Origin: a bacterium
Lineage (GTDB): Bacteria; UBA8248
DNA: 64,000 nt
Assembly (NCBI GenBank): GCA_963692865.2
Contig: OY843592.1
Location: 2,752,001-2,816,000 of the forward strand
Reading direction: 5' to 3'
Shown: piece after piece, positions 53,905-63,843 of the stretch
Layout: each line of letters opens with the position of its first letter
Numbering within the stretch: the stretch's first letter is position 1
Notes under the pieces: model-generated
The model's database searches: none
Seen by the model: the letters and a program-made list of their open reading frames with translations, nothing else
Told to the model about the DNA's origin: nothing
Program-made: the position numbers and the translations under genes

Positions 53905-54004
53905 CTCGATTCGGAAAATGCGAAAATGGAGAATGCGAGTCCGTATTTTCCGGCGGCCCGATATTGAACAAAGATATAATTCAGGATTTGTGTTCGCCCG
54001 CGTA

Positions 54005-54033
54005 TTGACCTCCGCCGGGGTCTGGGCTAGATT
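54005..54033 (+). promoter_or_regulatory. Candidate sigma70 promoter for hup
   Basis: TTGACC-17bp-TAGATT. Confidence 0.55.
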
Positions 54034-54107
54034 AGCCGTCAATTATCCCACAGGTTCAATGAACCCGAGAATTTCTATAAAGCCCGAACGTTCTGGGAGA
54101 CCATGAA

Positions 54108-54383
54108 ATGCAAAAATCCGACCTGATTGAAAAAATCGCCGGGGACGCCGGCATATCGAAAGCAGCGGCGGACCGCGCTCTCAAGTCCCTGCTCGACTCC
54201 GTAACGCAATCCCTGAAGAAGGGGGACCGCGTTTCCCTGGTCGGATTCGGAACCTTTTCTGTTTCCAGGCGCCCCGCGCGCACGGGACGCAATCCGCAAA
54301 CGGGCGAGACAATCTCCATCAAGGCGAGCAAGGCGCCCAAGTTCTCCGCAGGCAAGAGCCTCAAGGACGCAGTGAACAAATAA
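54108..54383 (+). CDS. hup: DNA-binding protein HU
   Basis: MQKSDLI...VSLVGFGTF...[10 protein letters not shown]...[13 protein letters not shown]. Confidence 0.97.
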
Positions 54384-54430
54384 ACGCGGGCTCCTGAGGG
54401 CGGCTCGTACAGGAATCGCTACAGGGTAAA

Positions 54431-54478
54431 ACCCCCGACGCTGGAGGTGGAATGTCCCGCGTCGGGGATTTTTATTTT
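54431..54478 (+). terminator. Probable terminator after hup
   Basis: CCCCGACGC...GCGTCGGGG stem followed by ATTTTTATTTT. Confidence 0.55.
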
Positions 54479-54540
54479 CAAAAACATTTTGTGGCGGGCG
54501 CCTTCGCCTTTGCTCGGCATCGTTCTCTCTTCGTCCGTCG

Positions 54541-54923
54541 GGGGCTGTTGAAAAACCCCTCCTCACTCGGATTGACCACCGCCTTCATTGTCGTTTCGAT
54601 TGTAGGGGTCGCATAGTATGCGACCCGTATTGTGAAGGCGGAAAGGCCGGGCCGCATGATATGTCAGACATATATGTCTGACCTACAAAAACCGTTCCTC
54701 CCCGGTCGCATAAAACACTCGTTCATCAGGACTTTTTCAACAGACCTTGTCAGGGGGGTAAGAAAAAAAAACAAAAGCCCCCCAACCCGGCAGGGGGCAT
54801 CGCCTTTTTATGTCCCCCTGACAAGGGGGGTGATTTTAAGCCAACGAGAGGCGTAAAGATGGGTGGTTCTTCAATCGAGAGGAGCGTCCCCTCTACCTAT
54901 GGCAAGGGCTTTTTCAACAACAC
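54541..54923. repeat. MITE/REP composite; second copy of the 95-bp unit
   Basis: GGGGCTGTTGAAAAACCC at 54541, GTAGGGGTCGCATAGTATGCGACCC, GGACTTTTTCAACAGACC at about 54729, CTTGTCAGGGGG / CCCCCTGACAAG and GGCTTTTTCAACAAC at about 54907. Confidence 0.85.
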
Positions 54924-54948
54924 GATTTGGCGCTGCTTGGAAACAACC

Positions 54949-56037
54949 TCAGGCGAGGAAGTCCTTGAACTTCGAGAGGAAGCGCGCATTCTCCGCCTCG
55001 AGTCCGACGGTGACGCGAATCCATCCGGGATGCCCGAACGCGCTGCCGGGACGAACGATGACGCCTTCGCGCATCAGGGCGTCCGTCGCCGCGTCGCCCT
55101 CGCCCACGCGCACGAAGATGAAATTGGCCTGGCTCTCGACGTATTCGAGCCCCATCCCGCCGAACGCCGCATAGAGCGCTTCCCTCCCCGCCCGCACCAG
55201 AGCGACGGCGCGCTCCTTGTAGTCGTCGTCCTCCAGAGCGGCCAGGGCCGCCGCCTGCGCGAGCTGGTTCACGTTGAAGGGATCGCGAACGCGGTTCATG
55301 TACTCGACGACGCCCTCGCGGCTCACGGCGAAGCCCACGCGGAGGCCGGCCAGGCCGTAGATTTTCGAGAACGAGCGCAAAACGACGAGCGGAAAGCGGT
55401 CGATCAGGGAGACGCTGTCGGGATACGCCGGGTCGTCAACGAAATCGCCGTAGGCCTCATCCAGGAGCACGAGGAGGCCTTCGGGCAGTTTTTCGAGAAA
55501 GGAGACGAGTTCATCCTCGGCCAATATCCCGCCCGTGGGGTTGTTCGGCGAACACAGGAACACGATTTTCGTGCGCGCGGAAACGTTGTCGAGAACATCG
55601 CCCAAGTTTATTTTCATGTCCCGCAAGGGAGAGAAAACGACGCTCGCGCCCATCACCCGGCTCACGTGCGCATAGGGGCTGAAGGTGGGCCGGGGGATAA
55701 CCACCTCGTCGCCTTCGTTCAGGAACGTTCTGCCTAGGACGGAGAGCACGTCGTCGCCCCCGTTTCCCATGAACACCCGCGCCGGGGAGACGCCCAGTTT
55801 CTGCGCCAACCGGCCCGCCAGCGCCTTCGCCCCGCCGTCGGGATAGCGATGCAGGCCGTCGAGCGCGCCGCGAATCGCATCCATCGCGCCGGGCACGGGG
55901 CCGAGCGCGTTCTCGTTGCTGGCGAGCTTGACGACCTCGCTCAGCCCGTACTCGGCGGCCACCTCCTCGATGGAGCGCCCCGGAACATAAGCCTCAAGCG
56001 AGGAGACGCCTTTTCTCAGTAACTCTTCCACGTTCAC
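54949..56037 (-). CDS. hisC: Histidinol-phosphate aminotransferase
   Basis: YVPG, KLASNEN, RYPD, CSPNNPTG, LDEAY, RSFSKIYGLAGLRVG, WIRVTVG. Confidence 0.95.
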   Translation of the reverse strand: MNVEELLRKGVSSLEAYVPGRSIEEVAAEYGLSEVVKLASNENALGPVPGAMDAIRGALDGLHRYPDGGAKALAGRLAQKLGVSPARVFMGNGGDDVLSVLGRTFLNEGDEVVIPRPTFSPYAHVSRVMGASVVFSPLRDMKINLGDVLDNVSARTKIVFLCSPNNPTGGILAEDELVSFLEKLPEGLLVLLDEAYGDFVDDPAYPDSVSLIDRFPLVVLRSFSKIYGLAGLRVGFAVSREGVVEYMNRVRDPFNVNQLAQAAALAALEDDDYKERAVALVRAGREALYAAFGGMGLEYVESQANFIFVRVGEGDAATDALMREGVIVRPGSAFGHPGWIRVTVGLEAENARFLSKFKDFLA

Positions 56038-56142
56038 AGTCTTGCACCTCTCTTTACCGTCTTCGCCTCAAACTCCTCGAACGGCGAACATATAGACCAT
56101 TCAAGGCGATTTGACCATACACTCCCAGACGGGCGCGCACAT

Positions 56143-56640
56143 GGGGTTGTTGCCCCCCTGACAGGGATTTTTGAAAAACCTAATTCCGTGAGCGGGCGAA
56201 TTTGGCGCTTCCTCATCAGTCGCGTTTGACCCTCCCTACTCGGTCGAATCAAACCCTCATCTTGCGTGGCTGCCGTATCGATCTCACCCTGAGTAGCCGC
56301 CGAAGGCGGCGTATCGAAGGGCGCTCCCCTTCGATACGTTGACGACAGGCCCTTCGACGTGCTCCTTATGCGCTCCCTCGATACGGCGCGCAAGCGCGCC
56401 TGCTCGGGATGAGGAAGTTAGTACGCGCAAGGGTGGCAAATGCGCCACAGGCGCTTTTCCCTTGATGGGCTTTTTCAACAACCCTGGCAAGGGGGGTGGG
56501 GGTTCGGAGGGAATCACACTTCACCAGCCCCACTCCCTCGGCTTGAAAAGCATCCCCCTTACTGCTCTCGCCTTGAAAGGCAACCCCCCTGTCAGGGGGT
56601 AAAAACGATGCCTCCGGCGAGGGATTTTTTAACAACCCCA
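56143..56640. repeat. MITE/REP composite
   Basis: GGGATTTTTGAAAAACC, CCTCATCAGTCGCGTTTGACC, CCCTGAGTAGCCGCCGAAGGCGGCGTATCGAAGG, GGCTTTTTCAACAACCC and GATTTTTTAACAACCCC. Confidence 0.8.
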
Positions 56641-56767
56641 CATAGAGCCCCCTTACGAAGGAACCGCACATCGTCATACGCCATGAAGCCCGGAATGTCG
56701 ATGCGTTGCCCTCGGTGAGGGGGACGGGATAGAATATCCCTAACCAGCCGTCGAACGGAGACTCGTC

Positions 56768-57616
56768 TTGAGCGATGCGAAGCCCGACGTGAAACTGAAA
56801 AGACTCCAGGAAACCCTCGAAGAGATGGGGAGCGTTCTGGTCGCGTTCTCAGCGGGCGTGGACAGCACCTTTCTGGCCAAGGTCGCCCATGAAGTTCTCG
56901 GTGCGGGAGCGCTCGCCGTAACGGGCCGCTCCGTTACCCTCGCGGCGTCCGAACTCGAAGAATCCGGCATACTCGCGGCGCAAATCGGGATTCGCCACAT
57001 CATCGTGGACACCGACGAGATCGCGGATGAATCGTTCGGGAACAACCCGCCGAACCGCTGTTATTTCTGCAAGAACGAGCTTTATTCCGTCCTGAGCCGC
57101 GTGGCGGCCGAGGAGAAGACGGCCGTCATCGTCGACGGCTCGAACGCCGACGACGTGGGCGACCACCGCCCCGGAATGCAGGCGGCGCGCGAGCTGGGCG
57201 TGAGAAGCCCGCTCATGGAAGCGGGCATGACGAAAGCGGACATCCGAAGCCTCTCCCAATCGTTCGGCCTCCCCACCTGGGATAAGCCCGCGCAGGCGTG
57301 CCTCTCCAGCCGGTTCCCCTACGGAGACCGCATCACGCCCGAGAAGATCGCCCAGGTCGAAAAGGCGGAAAGCGGCCTGCGGGCGCTGGGCTTCCGGCAG
57401 TTGCGGGTGCGCCACCACGGCGACGTCGCCAGAATCGAGGTGCCGAAGAACGACATCGCGCGGCTGGTCGACCAGGAGACCTCCAGGCAGGTGATCGCCC
57501 GCATGAAAGAGGCCGGCTTCACCTACGTGACCATCGATCTCGAAGGATTCCGCTCGGGGAGCATGAACGAAGTGCTCAAGTCCGCGCGCGGCTCCGACCT
57601 GCTCATCCTCTCGTGA
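56768..57616 (+). CDS. larE: Nickel-pincer cofactor sulfur insertase LarE (CxxC-C, Fe-S type)
   Basis: PP-loop AFSAGVDS, NRCYFCK, DGSNADD..DHRPG, WDKPAQACLSSRFPYG, RVRHH, FRSGSMN. Confidence 0.94.
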   Translation: MSDAKPDVKLKRLQETLEEMGSVLVAFSAGVDSTFLAKVAHEVLGAGALAVTGRSVTLAASELEESGILAAQIGIRHIIVDTDEIADESFGNNPPNRCYFCKNELYSVLSRVAAEEKTAVIVDGSNADDVGDHRPGMQAARELGVRSPLMEAGMTKADIRSLSQSFGLPTWDKPAQACLSSRFPYGDRITPEKIAQVEKAESGLRALGFRQLRVRHHGDVARIEVPKNDIARLVDQETSRQVIARMKEAGFTYVTIDLEGFRSGSMNEVLKSARGSDLLILS

Positions 57617-58371
57617 ACCCGAACCTCATTCTCGAACTCCTCGAACAGGTGAAAGAGGGCCGCCTCGCGCCGGATGACGCCGCTGCGCGCCTTCGGGACC
57701 TGCCCTTCGAGGATCTGGGGCACACGCGGGTGGACCATCACCGCGCCCTCAGGAACGGCTTTCCCGAGGTCGTCTTCGGCGCGGGAAAAACCAGGGAGCA
57801 GGTCGTCGAAATCGCAAGGAGCCTGATGGCGAAAGACCAAACCGTCATGGTCACCCACGCGGGCGCCGAGCAGGCGGAAGCCCTGCTCGAACTCTCTCCC
57901 CGCGCGAACCACCACGAAACCGCGCGCATCGTCGAAATCCCGTGCCAGAACCCGCCCGCTCCGGTCGGCTCGGTCGCTATCGTTTGCGCCGGCACCTCCG
58001 ACATGCCCGTGGCCGAGGAGGCGGCGGTTACCGCGCGCATCCTCGGTTCGAATGTGACGCGCGTCTACGACGTGGGCGTGGCGGGCCTGCACCGCCTCCT
58101 GGCGGAAGTCGAGACCCTGCGCGAGGCGAACGCCGTCATCACGGTGGCGGGCATGGAGGGCGCCCTGCCCTCGGTGGTCGCCGGTCTGGTGGCGCGCCCC
58201 GTCATCGCGGTGCCCACGTCCGTGGGCTACGGCGCGAACCTGGGCGGACTCACGGCGCTTTTCGCCATGCTGAACTCGTGCGCCTCTGGCCTGAGCGTGG
58301 TGAACATCGACAACGGCTTCGGCGCGGCCTGCCAGGCGCACCTCATCAACAGGCAGACGGCCGCCTCGTGA
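57613..58371 (+). CDS. larB: Nickel-pincer cofactor carboxylase/hydrolase LarB
   Basis: DHHRALRNGFPEVVFG, AGTSDMPVAEEA, DVGVAGLHRL, AGMEGALPSVV, PTSVGYG, VNIDNGFGAA. GTG overlaps the larE stop. Confidence 0.95.
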   Translation: MNPNLILELLEQVKEGRLAPDDAAARLRDLPFEDLGHTRVDHHRALRNGFPEVVFGAGKTREQVVEIARSLMAKDQTVMVTHAGAEQAEALLELSPRANHHETARIVEIPCQNPPAPVGSVAIVCAGTSDMPVAEEAAVTARILGSNVTRVYDVGVAGLHRLLAEVETLREANAVITVAGMEGALPSVVAGLVARPVIAVPTSVGYGANLGGLTALFAMLNSCASGLSVVNIDNGFGAACQAHLINRQTAAS

Positions 58372-59603
58372 AGACGATCTACTTCGACTGCTTCGCGGGG
58401 GCGGCGGGCGACATGCTCGTGGGCGCCCTGATAGACGTAGGCCTCGACTTCAAGGCCCTTGAAGGCGAGCTCGCGAAACTCGAAGTCGGGGGCTACTTTC
58501 TTTCTTCCGATAGCGTTATTAAACAAGGAGTTACATCCCGAAAGTTCAGCGTGAACATTACGCAGAAAACCCGCCATCACCATCACGAAGGGCATCATCA
58601 CGGCGCGCACCATCATGGCCGCTCCTACACGCAGATCCGGGAAATACTCGAAAAAGCGCCGATTCCCGAGATTCCCAAAAGCCGCGCCATCCGAGCCTTT
58701 CACCGCCTGGGCGTCGTGGAGGCGGGCATCCACGGCGTCGATCTCGACGCGGTCCATTTCCACGAAGTCGGCGCGGTGGATTCCATCATCGACGTTACGG
58801 GCTATTTTCTGGGCCTCCACATGCTGGGCGTCGAGCGGGTGGCGGCTTCTCCGCTGCCGATGGGGAGCGGGTTCGCGCAGTGCGCGCACGGGCGGATGCC
58901 GGTTCCGGCGCCCGCGACCGCCAAGCTGCTCGAAGGCATACCCGTGGCGAAGAGCAACCTCGAGGGCGAGGCGCTGACGCCCACGGGGGCCCTGCTGCTC
59001 ACGGAGAGCGCGGCGTTTTTCGGCCCCATGCCCGAGATGACGATAACGCGGGTGGGCTACGGCGCGGGCGACAAGGACCAGCCGGACACCCCGAACGCCG
59101 TTCGCGCATTCCTGGGGGAGAGCGAAGCGGGCGCCGAGGGCGACGGGCCACCCAACGCGGTCGCCGTGCTCGAAGCCAACATCGACGACATGAACCCCGA
59201 GCTTTTTCCGCACGTCATCGAAGGGGCGCTCAAAGAAGGCGCGCTCGACGCGTTCTCCATGCCCGTGACGGGCAAGAAGGGAAGGCCCGGGCAACTGCTC
59301 ACGATTTTAAGCCCTCTCGCGAAACAGGACGCCCTCACACGCTTCATGTTCCGCGAAACCTCGACCCTGGGCGTCCGCCGCCGCACGACGCATCGCGCGG
59401 TCGCCGGGCGCGCGTGGGTGGAGGTCGACCTCCCCTGGGGCCGGGTGCGCGTAAAAAAAGGAACCTTCGAGGGTGCCCTCACGAATCTCGCACCCGAATA
59501 CGAGGATTGCAGGCGTCTGGCCGAGGAAAGCGGGGTTCCGCTCAAGGAGGTAATGGAGGCGGCCCTCGCGCGCGCGAGAGAGATGACGGGGAGCGGGTGT
59601 TGA
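58368..59603 (+). CDS. larC: Nickel insertase LarC (full-length, His-rich)
   Basis: YFDCFAGAAGDM, HHHHEGHHHGAHHHGR, VHFHEVGAVDSIID, AHGRMPVPAPAT, TPTG, EANIDD, ETSTLGVR, PEYEDC. GTG overlaps the larB stop. Confidence 0.95.
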   Translation: MKTIYFDCFAGAAGDMLVGALIDVGLDFKALEGELAKLEVGGYFLSSDSVIKQGVTSRKFSVNITQKTRHHHHEGHHHGAHHHGRSYTQIREILEKAPIPEIPKSRAIRAFHRLGVVEAGIHGVDLDAVHFHEVGAVDSIIDVTGYFLGLHMLGVERVAASPLPMGSGFAQCAHGRMPVPAPATAKLLEGIPVAKSNLEGEALTPTGALLLTESAAFFGPMPEMTITRVGYGAGDKDQPDTPNAVRAFLGESEAGAEGDGPPNAVAVLEANIDDMNPELFPHVIEGALKEGALDAFSMPVTGKKGRPGQLLTILSPLAKQDALTRFMFRETSTLGVRRRTTHRAVAGRAWVEVDLPWGRVRVKKGTFEGALTNLAPEYEDCRRLAEESGVPLKEVMEAALARAREMTGSGC

Positions 59604-59672
59604 AGGTCCGCATTCTCAGATGATGCGCCGGACGCGGCGCAAGCCCGGTAAGAAAGAGTCGAGAAATCATCC

Positions 59673-59915
59673 ATGAAGATCCGCCTGAAATTGTTCGCCG
59701 ATTTCGCCGATAAAATGCCGCCCGAGCAGGACGCGGAGGGCGTCGCCGAGATCACGCTGCCCGAGGGCGCGAGCGTGTACGACGTGCTCGACCGATTCGG
59801 GATTCCCTACGAGGAGGCCTACATCGTCCTGCTCGACGGGCGGCACGCGAAGAAATCGGTCGTGATACCGGCGGGTGCGGAGCTTTGCGTGTTCCCGCCC
59901 ATCGTGGGAGGGTGA
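59673..59915 (+). CDS. MoaD/ThiS-family ubiquitin-like sulfur carrier
   Basis: 80 aa, MKIRLKLFA...VFPPIVGG ending in Gly-Gly. Confidence 0.9.
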   Translation: MKIRLKLFADFADKMPPEQDAEGVAEITLPEGASVYDVLDRFGIPYEEAYIVLLDGRHAKKSVVIPAGAELCVFPPIVGG

Positions 59916-60036
59916 GGAGAGAGGCTGAACAGCATCCGAAGAGGAAAACAGGTCAAACACAGGGGCAAACACGCAGGTTCGCTCTACGTCATTTTTGCCT
60001 TCGATTCTGTTATTTCTTACTTTTCTTCTGCACGAC

Positions 60037-61428
60037 TCATCGTTTCCCGCCGAACGCGGCGTTCAGATCACGACGCTCAAGCACACCGCCCATGCCTTCG
60101 TGCCTAGGCCCGAAGAACGCGCCGGTGACCGAACCGGCGTCACCGCCGGTCTGAACAAAGGTATTGCCGCGCACTGCGACCGAATAGCCGAGGTCGCCAT
60201 CCCCCCACGTTCCGCCGCCGTCAATTTGCATATTGGTGAAATCGAGTCGTCCGTCGAAGTTCGCCAGATCGACCGTAAGATCAGAATCGCCGACGACCAC
60301 TCGCGCGGATGACGCGATTCCCAAGAGCGCTCCGCTCCATGTCACGCTCTTTGTCAACTCTTCATTGTCCGCCAGATTCGTCCACGGCGTTGGACCCGAC
60401 GCCCAAGGCTGCGCCAAGCCGTTTCTCACAGCGACGCCGAAGGAAACCTCGCCACCCTCAATGCCCAAATCCCCGCGAACGTGAAACGACGTGTCGGTCC
60501 ATGGCCCGAGATTCTCCACCGATATGTCTTTCGGCAGATCGCCGGGGGAAAATCGAGCATAGGCCGCAAGGAGAGCTTCGCCGTCGATTTTTCCCAAGGC
60601 GTATCCGGTAAAATTCCTGGGCGGGTGGGGTTTCAGGGTGGCATTCGGGAATCGTTCGGGATCAACATGGCCTGCAAATCCCACTGCATGAAGCAATTCG
60701 TGAACGATGGTGCGGATCATTCTCTCTTGCGGGTAAGATGCAAGCTGCTCGATGTCAATCAGCACATGCGCGCGTGAGGCCCTGGTCACCTCTCTCCTTC
60801 CCGTTCGTGGGTCCGTGCGGACAAAATACCTTTGACGCGCAAGTCCAATAAATGAGTCCTTCGCTTCATAAGGCCACTCCGCCTGTGGGATAAACTCGAT
60901 GACGACGCTCCCCTCCGGCACGTCGAGGGTTGTCTCAGGGTCGGGTGCCGGAAAAATGCTGAACGAAAGCCTTTTATCGTACGGCAACGCCGCATTGATG
61001 ATTTGAACGGCGTGAACCGCGTTATCCGTGAACCTCCCGCTCGTCCCTACGGCGACGCTGACGACTGGCGGCGTCTGAAATGTTCTGAGTCCTACGGCAT
61101 TGCCTTCAGTTGTTCTTGGATGTAGATAATCGATGACGTCCCGCGCCCCCGCGCCCTCTCGAACTCGACCGGATGAAACGGAAACTCCGTTGCGCGCACC
61201 CGTCTCCACGAGCCGGTCCCTGGGCGGCGCGACGTCGGGGCCGATATGCAAGGAACCATCAAAATCCACGATCGGCGCCTGCGGCGCGTGAGCAGGCGTT
61301 TGCAGCGGCAATTCAGGAAGAATGGCCGGGCGTCGCGGCATCCTCGAACCGCCACCGCCGCCTCCACCACAACCCAAAATAAGAATCGTCGCCAAGAAAA
61401 ACGCCAGCATGTTCCTGAACATTCTCAC
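60037..61428 (-). CDS. Lipoprotein with a zincin (matrixin-like) motif and C-terminal beta-barrel-like domain
   Basis: Lipobox-like LILGC followed by poly-Gly, HELLHAVGFAGH, and C-terminal VTGAFFGP...GGVL...AAFGGKR as in transferrin-binding-like barrels. Confidence 0.75.
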   Translation of the reverse strand: MRMFRNMLAFFLATILILGCGGGGGGGSRMPRRPAILPELPLQTPAHAPQAPIVDFDGSLHIGPDVAPPRDRLVETGARNGVSVSSGRVREGAGARDVIDYLHPRTTEGNAVGLRTFQTPPVVSVAVGTSGRFTDNAVHAVQIINAALPYDKRLSFSIFPAPDPETTLDVPEGSVVIEFIPQAEWPYEAKDSFIGLARQRYFVRTDPRTGRREVTRASRAHVLIDIEQLASYPQERMIRTIVHELLHAVGFAGHVDPERFPNATLKPHPPRNFTGYALGKIDGEALLAAYARFSPGDLPKDISVENLGPWTDTSFHVRGDLGIEGGEVSFGVAVRNGLAQPWASGPTPWTNLADNEELTKSVTWSGALLGIASSARVVVGDSDLTVDLANFDGRLDFTNMQIDGGGTWGDGDLGYSVAVRGNTFVQTGGDAGSVTGAFFGPRHEGMGGVLERRDLNAAFGGKR

Positions 61429-61540
61429 TTCCTCTCTATGATTGCGTATTTACGGTTGCGCCGAATTGGGACAGATTTTGTGCCTCTCTACAGAGAGCAC
61501 TCCCTAGACAGAATGAGCAGATTCCCTTGGCGCTTGATGA

Positions 61541-62302
61541 TTAAGGGTGATATCCGTTCTTCTTTAGCCATTGACGAGCAAGGTGTTTAGCTTCTTCGAT
61601 ATCGCTCTGGAACATTTCCTCCGTGAACACTCTTTTGCTTAAGTTCCTTTTCGCCAAGGTTCTACCGCGTCGATCAAGAACGATGCTCCTGTCTCCGATT
61701 ACCTTGGCGATGCTGTACCACATGTAGGCTTTGATCGGGTCTTTAGGGATGATATGCCCGTTATGATAAAGTGCTCCTATATTGTTTGCGGCCAATGACA
61801 CTCCTTGCTTCGCGGCCTTCTCGTACCACTTGATGGCCTTCTTCTCATCCCAAGAGACTCCGTGCCCGCTTCTGTACAACCAGCCGAGATAGAATTGAGC
61901 TAGCTTATAGCCAGAATCCGCCGCTTTCTTGAAGTGCTCTGCCGCCTGTTCATGATCTTCCTCGACCCCATATCCTCGGTAGAGCATATGTCCGAGCATC
62001 GTGAGGGCTTCAAGGTCTTTTCCCTTTGCCAGTTTGCGCAATCCGTCCTCTGATTTTTGGAACCACTTGTTTGCTTCTTCTTTATCCTTAAAGAACCCTC
62101 TTCCCGTTTGATACATGATGCCTATGGCGTACTGTGCGCGCGGGTCCCCGCTTTTCGCCAAGGGTAATATTTTCTCCCGCGCCAACTTATACTTTCCTTG
62201 TCGGTAGGCCTTTCGCGCCTCAAGATAATCAGCACTTGCAACTCGGTATGCACCTAAATTCAGAACGATGAAAAGGACAATCAGAATCGTTTTCTTGAAC
62301 AC
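61541..62302 (-). CDS. Secreted Sel1-repeat protein
   Basis: Signal peptide (GTG start, AGGAGG RBS) and repeats AQYAIGIMY..G.G, LGHMLY.G.GV, AQFYLGWLY..G.GV..D..KA..WY.KAA.QG. Confidence 0.92.
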   Translation of the reverse strand: MFKKTILIVLFIVLNLGAYRVASADYLEARKAYRQGKYKLAREKILPLAKSGDPRAQYAIGIMYQTGRGFFKDKEEANKWFQKSEDGLRKLAKGKDLEALTMLGHMLYRGYGVEEDHEQAAEHFKKAADSGYKLAQFYLGWLYRSGHGVSWDEKKAIKWYEKAAKQGVSLAANNIGALYHNGHIIPKDPIKAYMWYSIAKVIGDRSIVLDRRGRTLAKRNLSKRVFTEEMFQSDIEEAKHLARQWLKKNGYHP

Positions 62303-62324
62303 GAAATCTCCTCCTAAGATGTGA

Positions 62325-62471
62325 GTGTATCCGGCCAGCCCTTACGCCGGGCCGGTCTCCCAACAACTCACGGATTCAGGGTGGGTTCCCACCTATTCCG
62401 GCCTCGGGAGAGGCCGTGTTTTATTCAGCGGGCGACCCGGACACAAGGTCGCTCCGCAAGCTGCTGGGAGT
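62325..62471 (-). ncRNA. Candidate structured RNA (multi-branch, about 145 nt) upstream of the Sel1 gene
   Basis: An 18-bp closing helix (62453-62470 with 62357-62374) pairs fully only on the minus strand, using four G.U pairs. It encloses three hairpins and is followed by a fourth. The predicted +1 coincides with the helix start. Confidence 0.7.
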
Positions 62472-62477
62472 AAGAAA

Positions 62478-62506
62478 AGTGTATAGAAAGTGAAATTGTA
62501 GAGCAA
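62478..62506 (-). promoter_or_regulatory. Sigma70 promoter for the structured RNA / Sel1 transcript
   Basis: TTGCTC-17bp-TACACT, then 6 nt to A at 62471. Confidence 0.65.
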
Positions 62507-62514
62507 GCGATGTT

Positions 62515-63105
62515 TTATTGTGCAGAGAAAATACTAGGGTTGTCTTCTATAAACGGAGATAATGCGGCTAGAAGGCCTATGTTTTTCACTCTCTCCAAAA
62601 TGAATTTTGCGAGAGATTCATCTTTTGTTTTTATAGCCGCTTCATATGCTTTCATATAGTTTTCCATCGCTTTTTCTGATGGGCCTGTTTTAGCGTATAT
62701 TTCCGCCATGCAGTAATAAGGTTGAGGCATATCGGTTCCACCCATCTTTAGCACTGTCATGCAGTCCGCAACGGATTTCTCATAATTCCCCATATCCTTA
62801 TAGGCCATCGCCCTGTTGCTGAGGGCGGCAAGATCATCATTGCCTGATAAATCCCATGCCATATTCAGGTTCTCAATGGCTCTTTGGTAATCCCCTATAA
62901 TTCCATACGCTACCCCTCTATTGCGGTAGGCAATTTGCCGCTCCGATTCATTCTCGCTACTCTCAATAACATTCGTGAGATATCCAATAGCTTCTAAGTA
63001 GTCTTGGGAGTCAAGTGCTGCTTTAGCTTTTTGAAAATCACTGGTTTTTCCTGAGTCATTCATACAGGCCTCAACTTTGTCAATCAGGGGGAAATATATA
63101 CCCAC
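62515..63105 (-). CDS. Tetratricopeptide-repeat protein (start 63063, or continuation of the upstream ORF)
   Basis: AYRNRGVAYGIIGDYQRAIE, ALSNRAMAYKDMGNYEKS and PYYCMAEIYAKTG..EKA.E.Y TPR units. AT-rich. Confidence 0.85.
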   Translation of the reverse strand: MGIYFPLIDKVEACMNDSGKTSDFQKAKAALDSQDYLEAIGYLTNVIESSENESERQIAYRNRGVAYGIIGDYQRAIENLNMAWDLSGNDDLAALSNRAMAYKDMGNYEKSVADCMTVLKMGGTDMPQPYYCMAEIYAKTGPSEKAMENYMKAYEAAIKTKDESLAKFILERVKNIGLLAALSPFIEDNPSIFSAQ

Positions 63106-63493
63106 GTTCTCTTGCGGACTCAGTATCTCTTCTTAGCCGAGCAACTACTTCTTTAATTTGATCACGCATTTTTTCTGATTCTTGCAAATGTCCTTTGATC
63201 TCTTGCGCATTTTTTCGCGCATCTTCCATAATCCCCCGCATGCTTATGGAGTTTATCAGTCCTCCTATTGCGAACACGAAAACCGCGATCGTAAAAATAA
63301 AGCTCATAAATCTCAGTAGCATTGTAGAGGACGAGTCACGCAAAGACACGATCTTTTCTGTAATTTCAATGTTAGCTAGCCGCATTTCTTCTTTGGTGGG
63401 GGGAAGATTATCTTGAAGATATTCTGAGGCGTTTGCATAGAACACAAAGGAAAATGCGCAAAGCAGAACAAATACAAAGAGATAGCGCTTCAT
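63080..63493 (-). CDS. Signal-peptide + TM + coiled-coil protein; possible 5' half of a frameshifted TPR gene
   Basis: MKRYLFVFVLLCAFSFVFYANA signal, FMSFIFTIAVFVFAIGGLI TM, then a coiled coil. Overlaps the TPR ORF in the +1 frame. Confidence 0.6.
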   Translation of the reverse strand: MKRYLFVFVLLCAFSFVFYANASEYLQDNLPPTKEEMRLANIEITEKIVSLRDSSSTMLLRFMSFIFTIAVFVFAIGGLINSISMRGIMEDARKNAQEIKGHLQESEKMRDQIKEVVARLRRDTESARERGYIFPPD

Positions 63494-63843
63494 TGGCAGT
63501 ATCCAGATTATAGCAAAGTGAGGTAACACTATTGCACGGACTAGCGAGAGATACAAACACCATATCTCAGTGCCAGAAAGAGATTGAAAAGGTATTAAAC
63601 TTGGAAATTCCGAAGGCAAAAACAAAACCGCTATTCCGCATCCGGCAGCAATCCCTTGCTCCTGTTCAGGGTTGAATCATTGTGGCAAAGATTCCGGCCC
63701 TCCCTTTTCGCTTGAATGTCCTACAAAATAGCTCGGATCGTCGCTGTCGGCGGGCGTGGTCATAGAGAGATGCGAATTGTCTTTCGCGTCCTGCTCCTTC
63801 CCGGCCTTTGGATCCGTCTTGCCGTTCGGCTTATTACAGGTTA

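Follow-up and report, generated by a model that had tools for sequence, protein, structure and literature searches.

A multi-copy structured leader RNA ahead of secreted and surface protein genes in several bacterial phyla, distantly related to sRNA-Xcc1

A 64,000-nucleotide stretch of a bacterial genome (assembly GCA_963692865.2, contig OY843592.1, positions 2,752,001 to 2,816,000; hereafter the window) carries, at its positions 62471-62303, a structured RNA directly ahead of a gene for a Sel1-repeat protein. This is a previously uncatalogued, multi-copy leader RNA that occurs in several phyla ahead of genes for secreted and surface proteins, and a conserved, aptamer-like, covarying fold is located in the predicted 5' untranslated region. 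With moderate confidence, we take the 62471-62303 RNA to be the 5' leader of the Sel1 mRNA and a cis-acting, riboswitch-like element belonging to a cross-phylum, promoter-proximal family. Judged by sequence and fold, the element is a distant relative and a new architectural variant of sRNA-Xcc1 (RF02221), a catalogued RNA that is mechanistically unexplained. All element coordinates are on the minus strand of the window.

Conserved fold and covariation

Over 181 nt, RNAfold gave the window copy a minimum free energy of -85.7 kcal/mol (z = -4.63), and none of 200 dinucleotide shuffles folded equally well. The fold consists of a long outer helix (P1), a local hairpin (P2), a conserved core of helix P3, an asymmetric internal loop and hairpin P3a, and a further hairpin (P4) ahead of the expression region of the Sel1 gene (Table 1). 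An earlier reading of the same DNA made from its letters without database searches (the sequence-only reading) had described an 18-bp outer helix with four G.U pairs, which is present and folds as described (RNAfold, shuffles). The GCGACCU/GGGUCGC, CGGCCUC/GAGGCCG and CCGGCC/GGCCGG hairpins that it listed are also present and recur in relatives, and the AGGAGG site and Sel1 start follow P4 as it had proposed. Its GGUGG/CCACC hairpin does occur in the window sequence, but comparative data prefer GGUGGG paired with CCCGCU; because P3 uses GGUGGG in the window, that hairpin is probably not part of the conserved fold.

The comparative evidence comes mainly from A4, a MAFFT alignment of 36 diverse copies made without reference to structure. 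RNAalifold predicted 28 pairs on A4, 27 of them with compensatory changes. Across P1 (17 pairs), P3 (6) and P3a (4), 90.9% of alignment cells were paired, compared with 72.4% after shuffling and approximately 40% when the partner strand was slid. Changes on both sides were seen in 27/27 counted pairs (P1 17/17, P3 6/6, P3a 4/4), and 0/500 shuffles reached the observed values, on all five pairing measures. P3 (CCCGCN with NGYGGG) was paired in 95.4% of cells, sequence is conserved within helices too (GCCAAAC/GUUUGGCGAC), and the most conserved part of the family is the asymmetric internal loop GAAUAnAAnAC / GRAAUA, flanked by P3 and P3a. Homologues and covariation are both abundant.

Of the two local hairpins, P2 forms in 50 of 60 non-redundant copies (57% with the 5' segment shuffled) and P4 in 40 of 60 (32% after shuffling). 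Between them lies the potential for a further helix, H, in which the U block YCGGGNNG on the P2 3' strand is complementary to the D block CNNCCCGR on the P4 5' strand. On A4, 91.0% of helix H cells pair (shuffled 87.7%; slid at most 54.5%), and among 59 non-redundant copies its four central pairs are near-invariant and its flanking pairs are C-G, U-A, U.G or G-C. Helix H excludes P2 and P4, and alongside P1 it would make a pseudoknot. A different pseudoknot, joining the P2 loop to the AACCCACC linker (GGG:CCC, RNAalifold on six paralogs), was dropped because the linker is not conserved outside Nitrospinota-type copies; according to the alignments, the linker part GGGAACCCACC is kept in those copies and variable in others.

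A subtype with an extended P3a and a conserved GGGUAGCUCCC (or GGGUCGCUCCC) insert was also observed (L027, in the window's own genome at C1:60062-60229, and L052, L148, L150, L152, L154 and L156). It occurs in Nitrospinota-type, alphaproteobacterial and Longimicrobiales copies.

Table 1 Features of the window copy and the gene behind it, in order of transcription.
Feature	Position in window	Strand	Sequence or pairing	Basis
Promoter	62478..62506 (-35 62506-62501; -10 62483-62478)	minus	-35 TTGCTC / 17-nt spacer / -10 TACACT	sequence read
P1 5' strand	62453..62470	minus	CUCCCAGCAGCUUGCGGA; pairs with 62374-62357	fold
P2 hairpin	62432..62452	minus	GCGACCU/GGGUCGC	fold
U block (within P2 3' strand)	62440-62433	minus	CCGGGUCG	conserved
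Conserved core (P3, internal loop, P3a)	62388..62432	minus		invariant or near-invariant alignment columns
P3	62432-62427 with 62393-62388	minus	CCCGCU with GGUGGG	covariation
Internal loop	62426-62417 facing 62398-62394	minus	GAAUAAAACA facing GAAUA	
P3a hairpin	62416-62399	minus	CGGCCUC-UCCC-GAGGCCG	
Linker, P3 to P1 3' strand	62375..62387	minus	AACCCACCCUGAA	alignments
P1 3' strand	62357..62374	minus	UCCGUGAGUUGUUGGGAG; 18 bp with CUCCCAGCAGCUUGCGGA, including 4 G.U	
P4 hairpin	62331..62355	minus	CCGGCC...GGCCGG	fold
D block (within P4)	62354-62347	minus	CGGCCCGG; complementary to U block	conserved
Expression region (mimic, Shine-Dalgarno, start)	62300..62328	minus		sequence
Mimic of P1 5' strand	62328-62321	minus	ACACUCAC	
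Shine-Dalgarno	62315-62308	minus	AGGAGGAG	
Start codon	62302-62300	minus	GTG	
Sel1-repeat protein gene, 253 aa, GTG start	61541..62302	minus		PF08238, E 3.7e-36

Promoter position

The promoter proposed by the sequence-only reading is present in the sequence, and its placement is conserved in the family. The window promoter matches the TTGACA/TATAAT consensus at 7/12 positions, which is weak, and it is unlisted by a consensus scan; the predicted +1 is the A at 62471, 7 nt past the -10 box. The 116 copies collected were reduced to 90 non-redundant copies, of which 65 carry a TTGACA box (at most one mismatch) 5' of the first P1 pair, compared with 8/90 for a control region, and in 58 of those 65 the -35 box lies 34-36 nt ahead of P1. 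The promoter position is kept across the family despite the weak match of the window copy to consensus, and the set distance between box and P1 implies that the RNA starts a few nt before P1 in most copies.

Distribution across genomes and phyla

Comparison of the element with its own genome by BLASTN returned five diverged copies, each behind a TTGACA box, whose outer helix differs in each and still pairs. A covariance model built from these five and the window copy (R1) gave 16 matches at E<=1 in the same genome, eight of them above 94 bits, and matched 24/61 genomes with G000 counted. These comprised 20/22 genomes of the same genus (G000 left out; 1-17 copies each), 1/14 further genomes of the same family and 2/7 from another family of the class, with no match in the 15 genomes labelled 'same domain'. 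After the addition of 40 fetched loci, R1 gave 93 matches in 81 loci.

The family extends well beyond this class. An exact-pattern scan restricted to one genome per species yielded 44 stretches whose record titles name Nitrospinota or Nitrospinaceae (9), Acidobacteriota, Acidobacteria or Vicinamibacterales (12), Longimicrobiales (1), Alphaproteobacteria (1), Rhodospirillales (1), Gammaproteobacteria (1), Candidatus Spongiihabitans thiooxidans (1), Rhodoferax (1) or 'bacterium' only (17, many of them sister genomes from the R1 search). Full-length copies are also found in metagenome-assembled genomes (MAGs) of Acidobacteriota, Gemmatimonadota, Alphaproteobacteria and Gammaproteobacteria, and R1 matched 19/19 tested loci from other phyla at 28-84 bits. 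With a second covariance model, R2, built from A4, five genomes belonging to other phyla yielded 6, 5, 3, 8 and 1 copies, and 15/61 relatives of the Vicinamibacterales genome gave matches. A strict core pattern gave 16 matches in the JGI metagenome contig collection and 0 in a viral contig collection.

The sequence-only reading had suggested a comparison with Rfam: nothing relevant was found with Rfam 15, either in the region of the element at E<=10 or across the whole window at gathering scores. No family reached its threshold, and none of the Rfam riboswitch families matched. A literature search found no description of a leader RNA of lipoprotein or signal-peptide genes, although motifs reported only in supplements would be missed by it.

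Genes behind the RNA

The Sel1 protein encoded behind the window copy has a hydrophobic N-terminus (MFKKTILIVLFIVLNLGAYRVASA), and a predicted export signal is the prevailing property of the proteins encoded behind the family as a whole. We defined an adjacent open reading frame (ORF) as one of at least 60 aa, preceded by a Shine-Dalgarno (SD) sequence and with its start no more than 120 nt away on the same strand, picked irrespective of its protein sequence. Such an ORF follows 55 of the 90 non-redundant copies, with the ribosome-binding site (RBS) 13-60 nt beyond the element. A signal-peptide-like N-terminus was found in 48/55 adjacent ORFs, and 17 of the 55 have a lipobox under a strict rule; by the same rule the background was 452/2214 long ORFs of the own genome (20%), a rough figure that comes from one genome and is set against related copies that are not independent. 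Pfam families were assigned to 17/55 adjacent proteins and none to the other 38. They comprise Sel1, ankyrin (2), TbpB-type beta-barrel (4; TbpB_B_D), OMP beta-barrel/OmpA (2; OMP_b-brl), CsgG, BamE, GH113, trypsin with collagen repeats, astacin/M10-like, DUF4875 and GT25 (2), and both GT25 enzymes are among the seven proteins without a signal peptide. To judge from these sequences, the genes under control would overwhelmingly encode exported proteins, namely lipoproteins, outer-membrane proteins and 'eukaryotic-like' Sel1 and ankyrin proteins.

The window type of P1 (CUCCCA...) stands ahead of Sel1 genes here and in L054 and ahead of genes for other exported proteins in L030, L049 and L068; the occurrence of one P1 type before different genes indicates that the promoter-leader unit is modular. 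Among the copies that lack an adjacent ORF, several stand at the start of long leaders (400-1100 nt) that run up to 'GCGGGGG' lipoprotein genes, and others are tandem copies, each with its own promoter.

Several individual loci deserve mention. In a gammaproteobacterial MAG, two copies (L163, L164) stand before paralogous secreted ankyrin proteins (PF00023, E 6e-33 and 4e-16), a case that parallels that of Sel1 in the window. Tandem arrangements, with two or three copies before one lipoprotein gene, occur in L016, L062, L063, L066, L076, L077 and L083; the distal copy, 15-40 nt ahead of the start, is degenerate (35-60 bits), and in the one case inspected (L016/L025) the promoter-distal copy carries its own TTGACA box. 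Behind the L014-type copy, which is the most conserved of the orthologous copies, approximately 600 nt contain no convincing ORF. In the first 40 nt past the RNA in L014-type loci, CAAUCCGCGUGUGGAUUGGGAAGGAUUGUAUGGG repeats both P1 strands, giving an attenuator-like chain of alternative pairings, and long inverted repeats (GGGGGUUACUCAUUA...UAAUGAGUAACCCCC), which are a separate repeat or structured element, occur once or twice 200-700 nt downstream of the RNA in L014, L031 and L040.

Relation to sRNA-Xcc1

Eight representative loci compared with Rfam gave one weak lead, RF02221 on one gammaproteobacterial copy, at 26.5 bits with a gathering score of 53. The window region itself had no RF02221 match at E<=10. 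Genome-wide, all three RF02221 matches in the own genome (E<=10; best 23.5 bits) fall on family copies; of the 18 matches in the five other-phylum genomes (best 30.5 bits), 13 do so, among them the 12 highest-scoring. RF02221 scores on copies are 18-30 bits and lie under the 53-bit gathering threshold. The relationship is also seen in the opposite direction, as R2 matched 9/12 genuine sRNA-Xcc1 members at the right place (E 3e-4 to 0.86), reciprocally to core positions 28-84. Genuine sRNA-Xcc1 members were found over the cut-off in 9/151 sampled genomes of their class and at E<=1e-3 in 13/151; G164 (over the cut-off) and G266, both unpublished, are counted in these tallies.

The two RNAs share a core consisting of a helix, an asymmetric loop (AAUACAAnAC / GGAAUA in sRNA-Xcc1) and a short capped helix. 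In sRNA-Xcc1 the core lies between G(U/C)CGGG and CCCGGC; these two segments pair as the outer helix that closes the RNA in the Rfam model, and this helix corresponds to helix H. The complementarity for it is present and covaries in the family described here, where it competes with P1, P2 and P4. Both RNAs are multi-copy, lie a few tens of nt before an SD sequence and carry a variable segment complementary to the SD region. In the genuine members, pairing of the apex of hairpin 2 with SD-fused bases was stronger for cognate than for non-cognate combinations (-15.7 vs -12.9 kcal/mol, n=12, p 0.0018), and this complementarity is visible by eye in most of the 12 published loci.

Their architectures and settings differ. 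The 12 published sRNA-Xcc1 loci are without the P1 5' strand, P2 and P4, all three of which are present here, and the variable segment of sRNA-Xcc1 is a self-contained hairpin, whereas here the same segment is the 3' strand of the 17-18 bp P1. The sRNA-Xcc1 loci lie approximately 35-45 nt ahead of small ORFs without signal peptides, unlike the largely exported cargo described above. Published work describes sRNA-Xcc1 as an 88-nt RNA of Xanthomonas campestris detected by Northern blot and end mapping (PMC2996969), as having seven copies in Xylella fastidiosa (PMC12189769), and as preceding symE within an integron cassette that is widespread in Xanthomonas, its downstream genes encoding small cytoplasmic proteins that include symE-like ones (10.1101/2025.06.18.660453). 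None of the 55 adjacent ORFs here has a SymE-type Pfam match, the window gene being Sel1, and no integron context was seen around the copies, for which no systematic search was made and attC sites and integrases were unsearched.

Proposed cis-acting control of translation

The element would act in cis on translation initiation, with the 3' strand of P1 alternating between two partners, the P1 5' strand and a look-alike of that strand at or near the SD sequence or start codon. P1 (hairpin 2 in sRNA-Xcc1) would keep the anti-RBS-region strand off the RBS. That equilibrium may be set by the conserved loop and junction and by the choice between helix H and P2/P4, such that the state of the sensor domain would decide whether the RBS opens; the same loop and junction are the likely, putative binding site of the input, which might be a small molecule, an ion or a protein.

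Copy-specific complementarity near the RBS, here and in sRNA-Xcc1, is what leads us to read the RNA as an element of cis-acting translational control. For many copies, a stretch after P4, at or near the SD sequence or start, looks like the P1 5' strand and is likewise complementary to the P1 3' strand, as in L161 (CCUAGACGUU-AUG), L146 (where the partner includes CAGGAGA), L152, L149, L150 and L153, and in the window GUGAGU (within 62371-62366, P1 3' strand) is complementary to ACUCAC (62326-62321). Duplexes between the P1 3' strand and the pre-start window averaged -12.4 kcal/mol for cognate and -10.5 kcal/mol for non-cognate combinations (n=31, permutation p ~1e-4) among non-redundant copies with an adjacent ORF, the window copy being represented by its near-identical ortholog L030; a wider window gave p ~4e-4 (n=39). 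The option of a new cis-regulatory RNA, one of those raised by the sequence-only reading, is supported: the element belongs to an RNA family that is promoter-proximal, strand-specific, covarying and just upstream of an RBS.

Translational riboswitches with a P1 switching helix are an established general class, and the RNA described here resembles them in having a conserved, covarying multi-helix domain at the mRNA 5' end and a closing helix, one strand of which can instead pair close to the RBS. It differs from them in its much longer P1, in a regulon set by protein export and not by pathway, and in matching no Rfam riboswitch family.

Several observations weigh against a riboswitch-like element acting in cis. 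The +1 at 62471 and the 3' extent of the leader are predictions, 35/90 copies have no adjacent ORF, and the cargo genes indicate no metabolite. The cognate signal is modest, the cognate partner being the best in its row in 3/31 cases and among the top three in 8/31. In the window copy, the mimic ACACUCAC stops 5 nt short of the SD sequence and pairs over 6-9 bp, against 18 bp for P1. A P1 of 17-18 bp is also unusually long for a riboswitch aptamer, and the P1 fold of the window copy is 18.5 kcal/mol more stable than the fold in which helix H is forced; these figures make a simple thermodynamic switch unlikely in the window copy, where any switching would have to be kinetic or factor-driven. 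Finally, sRNA-Xcc1 was reportedly described as a trans-acting sRNA by Chen et al. in 2011.

Alternative explanations

The foremost alternative is a leader recognised by a protein or RNase, with no sensing of a small molecule. On this view the long, G.U-containing P1 would serve RNase III, RNase E or RppH as a substrate or protect against them, or else the conserved loop would recruit a global RNA-binding protein on which the stability, processing or membrane targeting of envelope-protein mRNAs depends. A stability or processing role of this kind is a serious rival, albeit one that we consider rather unlikely. It accords with the length of P1 and its position a few nt after the predicted +1, with the far greater stability of the window P1 relative to any alternative fold, with a regulon set by protein destination (48/55 exported) and not pathway, and with sequence conservation inside helices (GCCAAAC/GUUUGGCGAC), which is typical of protein recognition. 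The partner protein is, however, putative, and the pre-RBS complementarity and conserved competing helices would be superfluous for a pure stability element.

It is distinctly improbable that the RNA is a free, trans-acting sRNA of the kind published for sRNA-Xcc1, with its own promoter, unlinked mRNA targets and an incidental proximity to genes. The 35/90 copies without an ORF within 120 nt and the long ORF-less region behind the L014-type copy would suit such an RNA, as would the 88-nt species detected for sRNA-Xcc1 (PMC2996969). However, no terminator-like site was found on the RNA strand between the window element and the SD sequence, 55/90 copies have a same-strand SD and start within 120 nt with strongly biased cargo, and the variable strand fits its own downstream RBS region better than those of other copies.

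A DNA-level repeat, such as a repetitive extragenic palindrome, a miniature inverted-repeat transposable element or a portable promoter cassette, with palindromes that have no function as RNA, is very improbable. In its favour, the element is multi-copy, its promoter moves with it and one P1 subtype stands before different genes. Palindromic repeats of the first two kinds, however, have no promoter of their own, occur in either orientation and typically lie between or behind genes; here orientation and RBS distance are fixed and the -35 box lies at a set distance (among the 65/90 copies with a box). Moreover, G.U pairs make the helices strand-specific, as the sequence-only reading had noted, and covariation spans five phyla.

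The same reading had likened the segment to a left end of an IS110-family element and suggested an IS110-like cassette; no test confirmed this resemblance, and a non-autonomous or domesticated IS110-type end encoding a bridge-RNA-like guide is scarcely credible, the least probable of the explanations considered. A promoter-driven structured non-coding RNA of approximately 150-180 nt with internal loops is indeed common to both, and the genome does contain IS110 elements, with PF01548 (IS110 transposase) hits at C1:11809, 834036, 1781080, 1824889, 1957551 and 3896297, each of 50.9 bits in a 364-aa frame. These six identical-score hits suggest a recently active insertion sequence. The six identical copies nevertheless lie at least 5.2 kb from any copy of the RNA and are unmatched by the RNA models, a DEDD recombinase is encoded in 0/55 adjacent ORFs and none in the window, and the RNA directly precedes unrelated cargo genes with their own RBS. 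Its loops are conserved across phyla, unlike the two variable, programmable guide loops of a bridge RNA, which are complementary to target and donor DNA, and copies differ in P1 by compensatory changes, unlike recent products of transposition. The bridge-RNA features used in this comparison are those reportedly described by Durrant et al. and Hiraizumi et al. in 2024. The closest catalogued relative of the element is sRNA-Xcc1 and not a transposon end.

Implications

If the cis-acting reading is true, one RNA fold would control dozens of genes for envelope and secreted proteins per genome in at least five phyla, mostly uncultured, and would define a post-transcriptional 'export regulon' that is invisible to protein-based annotation. 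Several lineages carrying the family appear to be sponge symbionts, and Sel1 and ankyrin proteins are thought to act on hosts. A 150-nt RNA amenable to probing in vitro would offer a handle on how symbionts time their host-interaction proteins of these types. With covariance models of the family, several hundred intergenic regions now left blank would receive an annotation.

A broader proposal, which we advance tentatively as possible but doubtful, is that the family and sRNA-Xcc1 form one widespread superfamily of cis-acting riboswitches, whose shared internal-loop core would bind a single cellular signal. In uncultured Nitrospinota, Acidobacteriota, Gemmatimonadota and Proteobacteria, the switch would determine when secreted and surface proteins are translated. 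sRNA-Xcc1, catalogued as trans-acting, would then serve chiefly as the leader of its downstream gene, a testable reinterpretation of an RNA whose mechanism has been open since 2010-2011.

Genomic neighbourhood of the window copy

The element lies in a low-GC stretch (61400-63700, 41-50% GC, compared with 57-71% in the preceding 7 kb, 54000-61400) containing, besides the Sel1 gene, one for a TPR-repeat protein (62515-63105, minus) and an unannotated ORF of 181 aa. The stretch has the look of an islet of 'eukaryotic-like' repeat proteins that was acquired. The gene after Sel1 (60037-61428, minus) encodes a lipoprotein (LGCGGGGGGGS) with an HExxH motif and a weak match, below the cut-off, to a TbpB-type C-terminal beta-barrel (PF01298, E 0.0023). 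It belongs to the large 'GCGGGGG' family of surface lipoproteins, which elsewhere is preceded by many copies of the RNA. Further along, overlapping long ORFs occupy 57298-59603 in a region of 65-70% GC; one of them presumably encodes a LarC-like protein (MLVGALIDVGLD...), and the preceding one a LarB-like protein.

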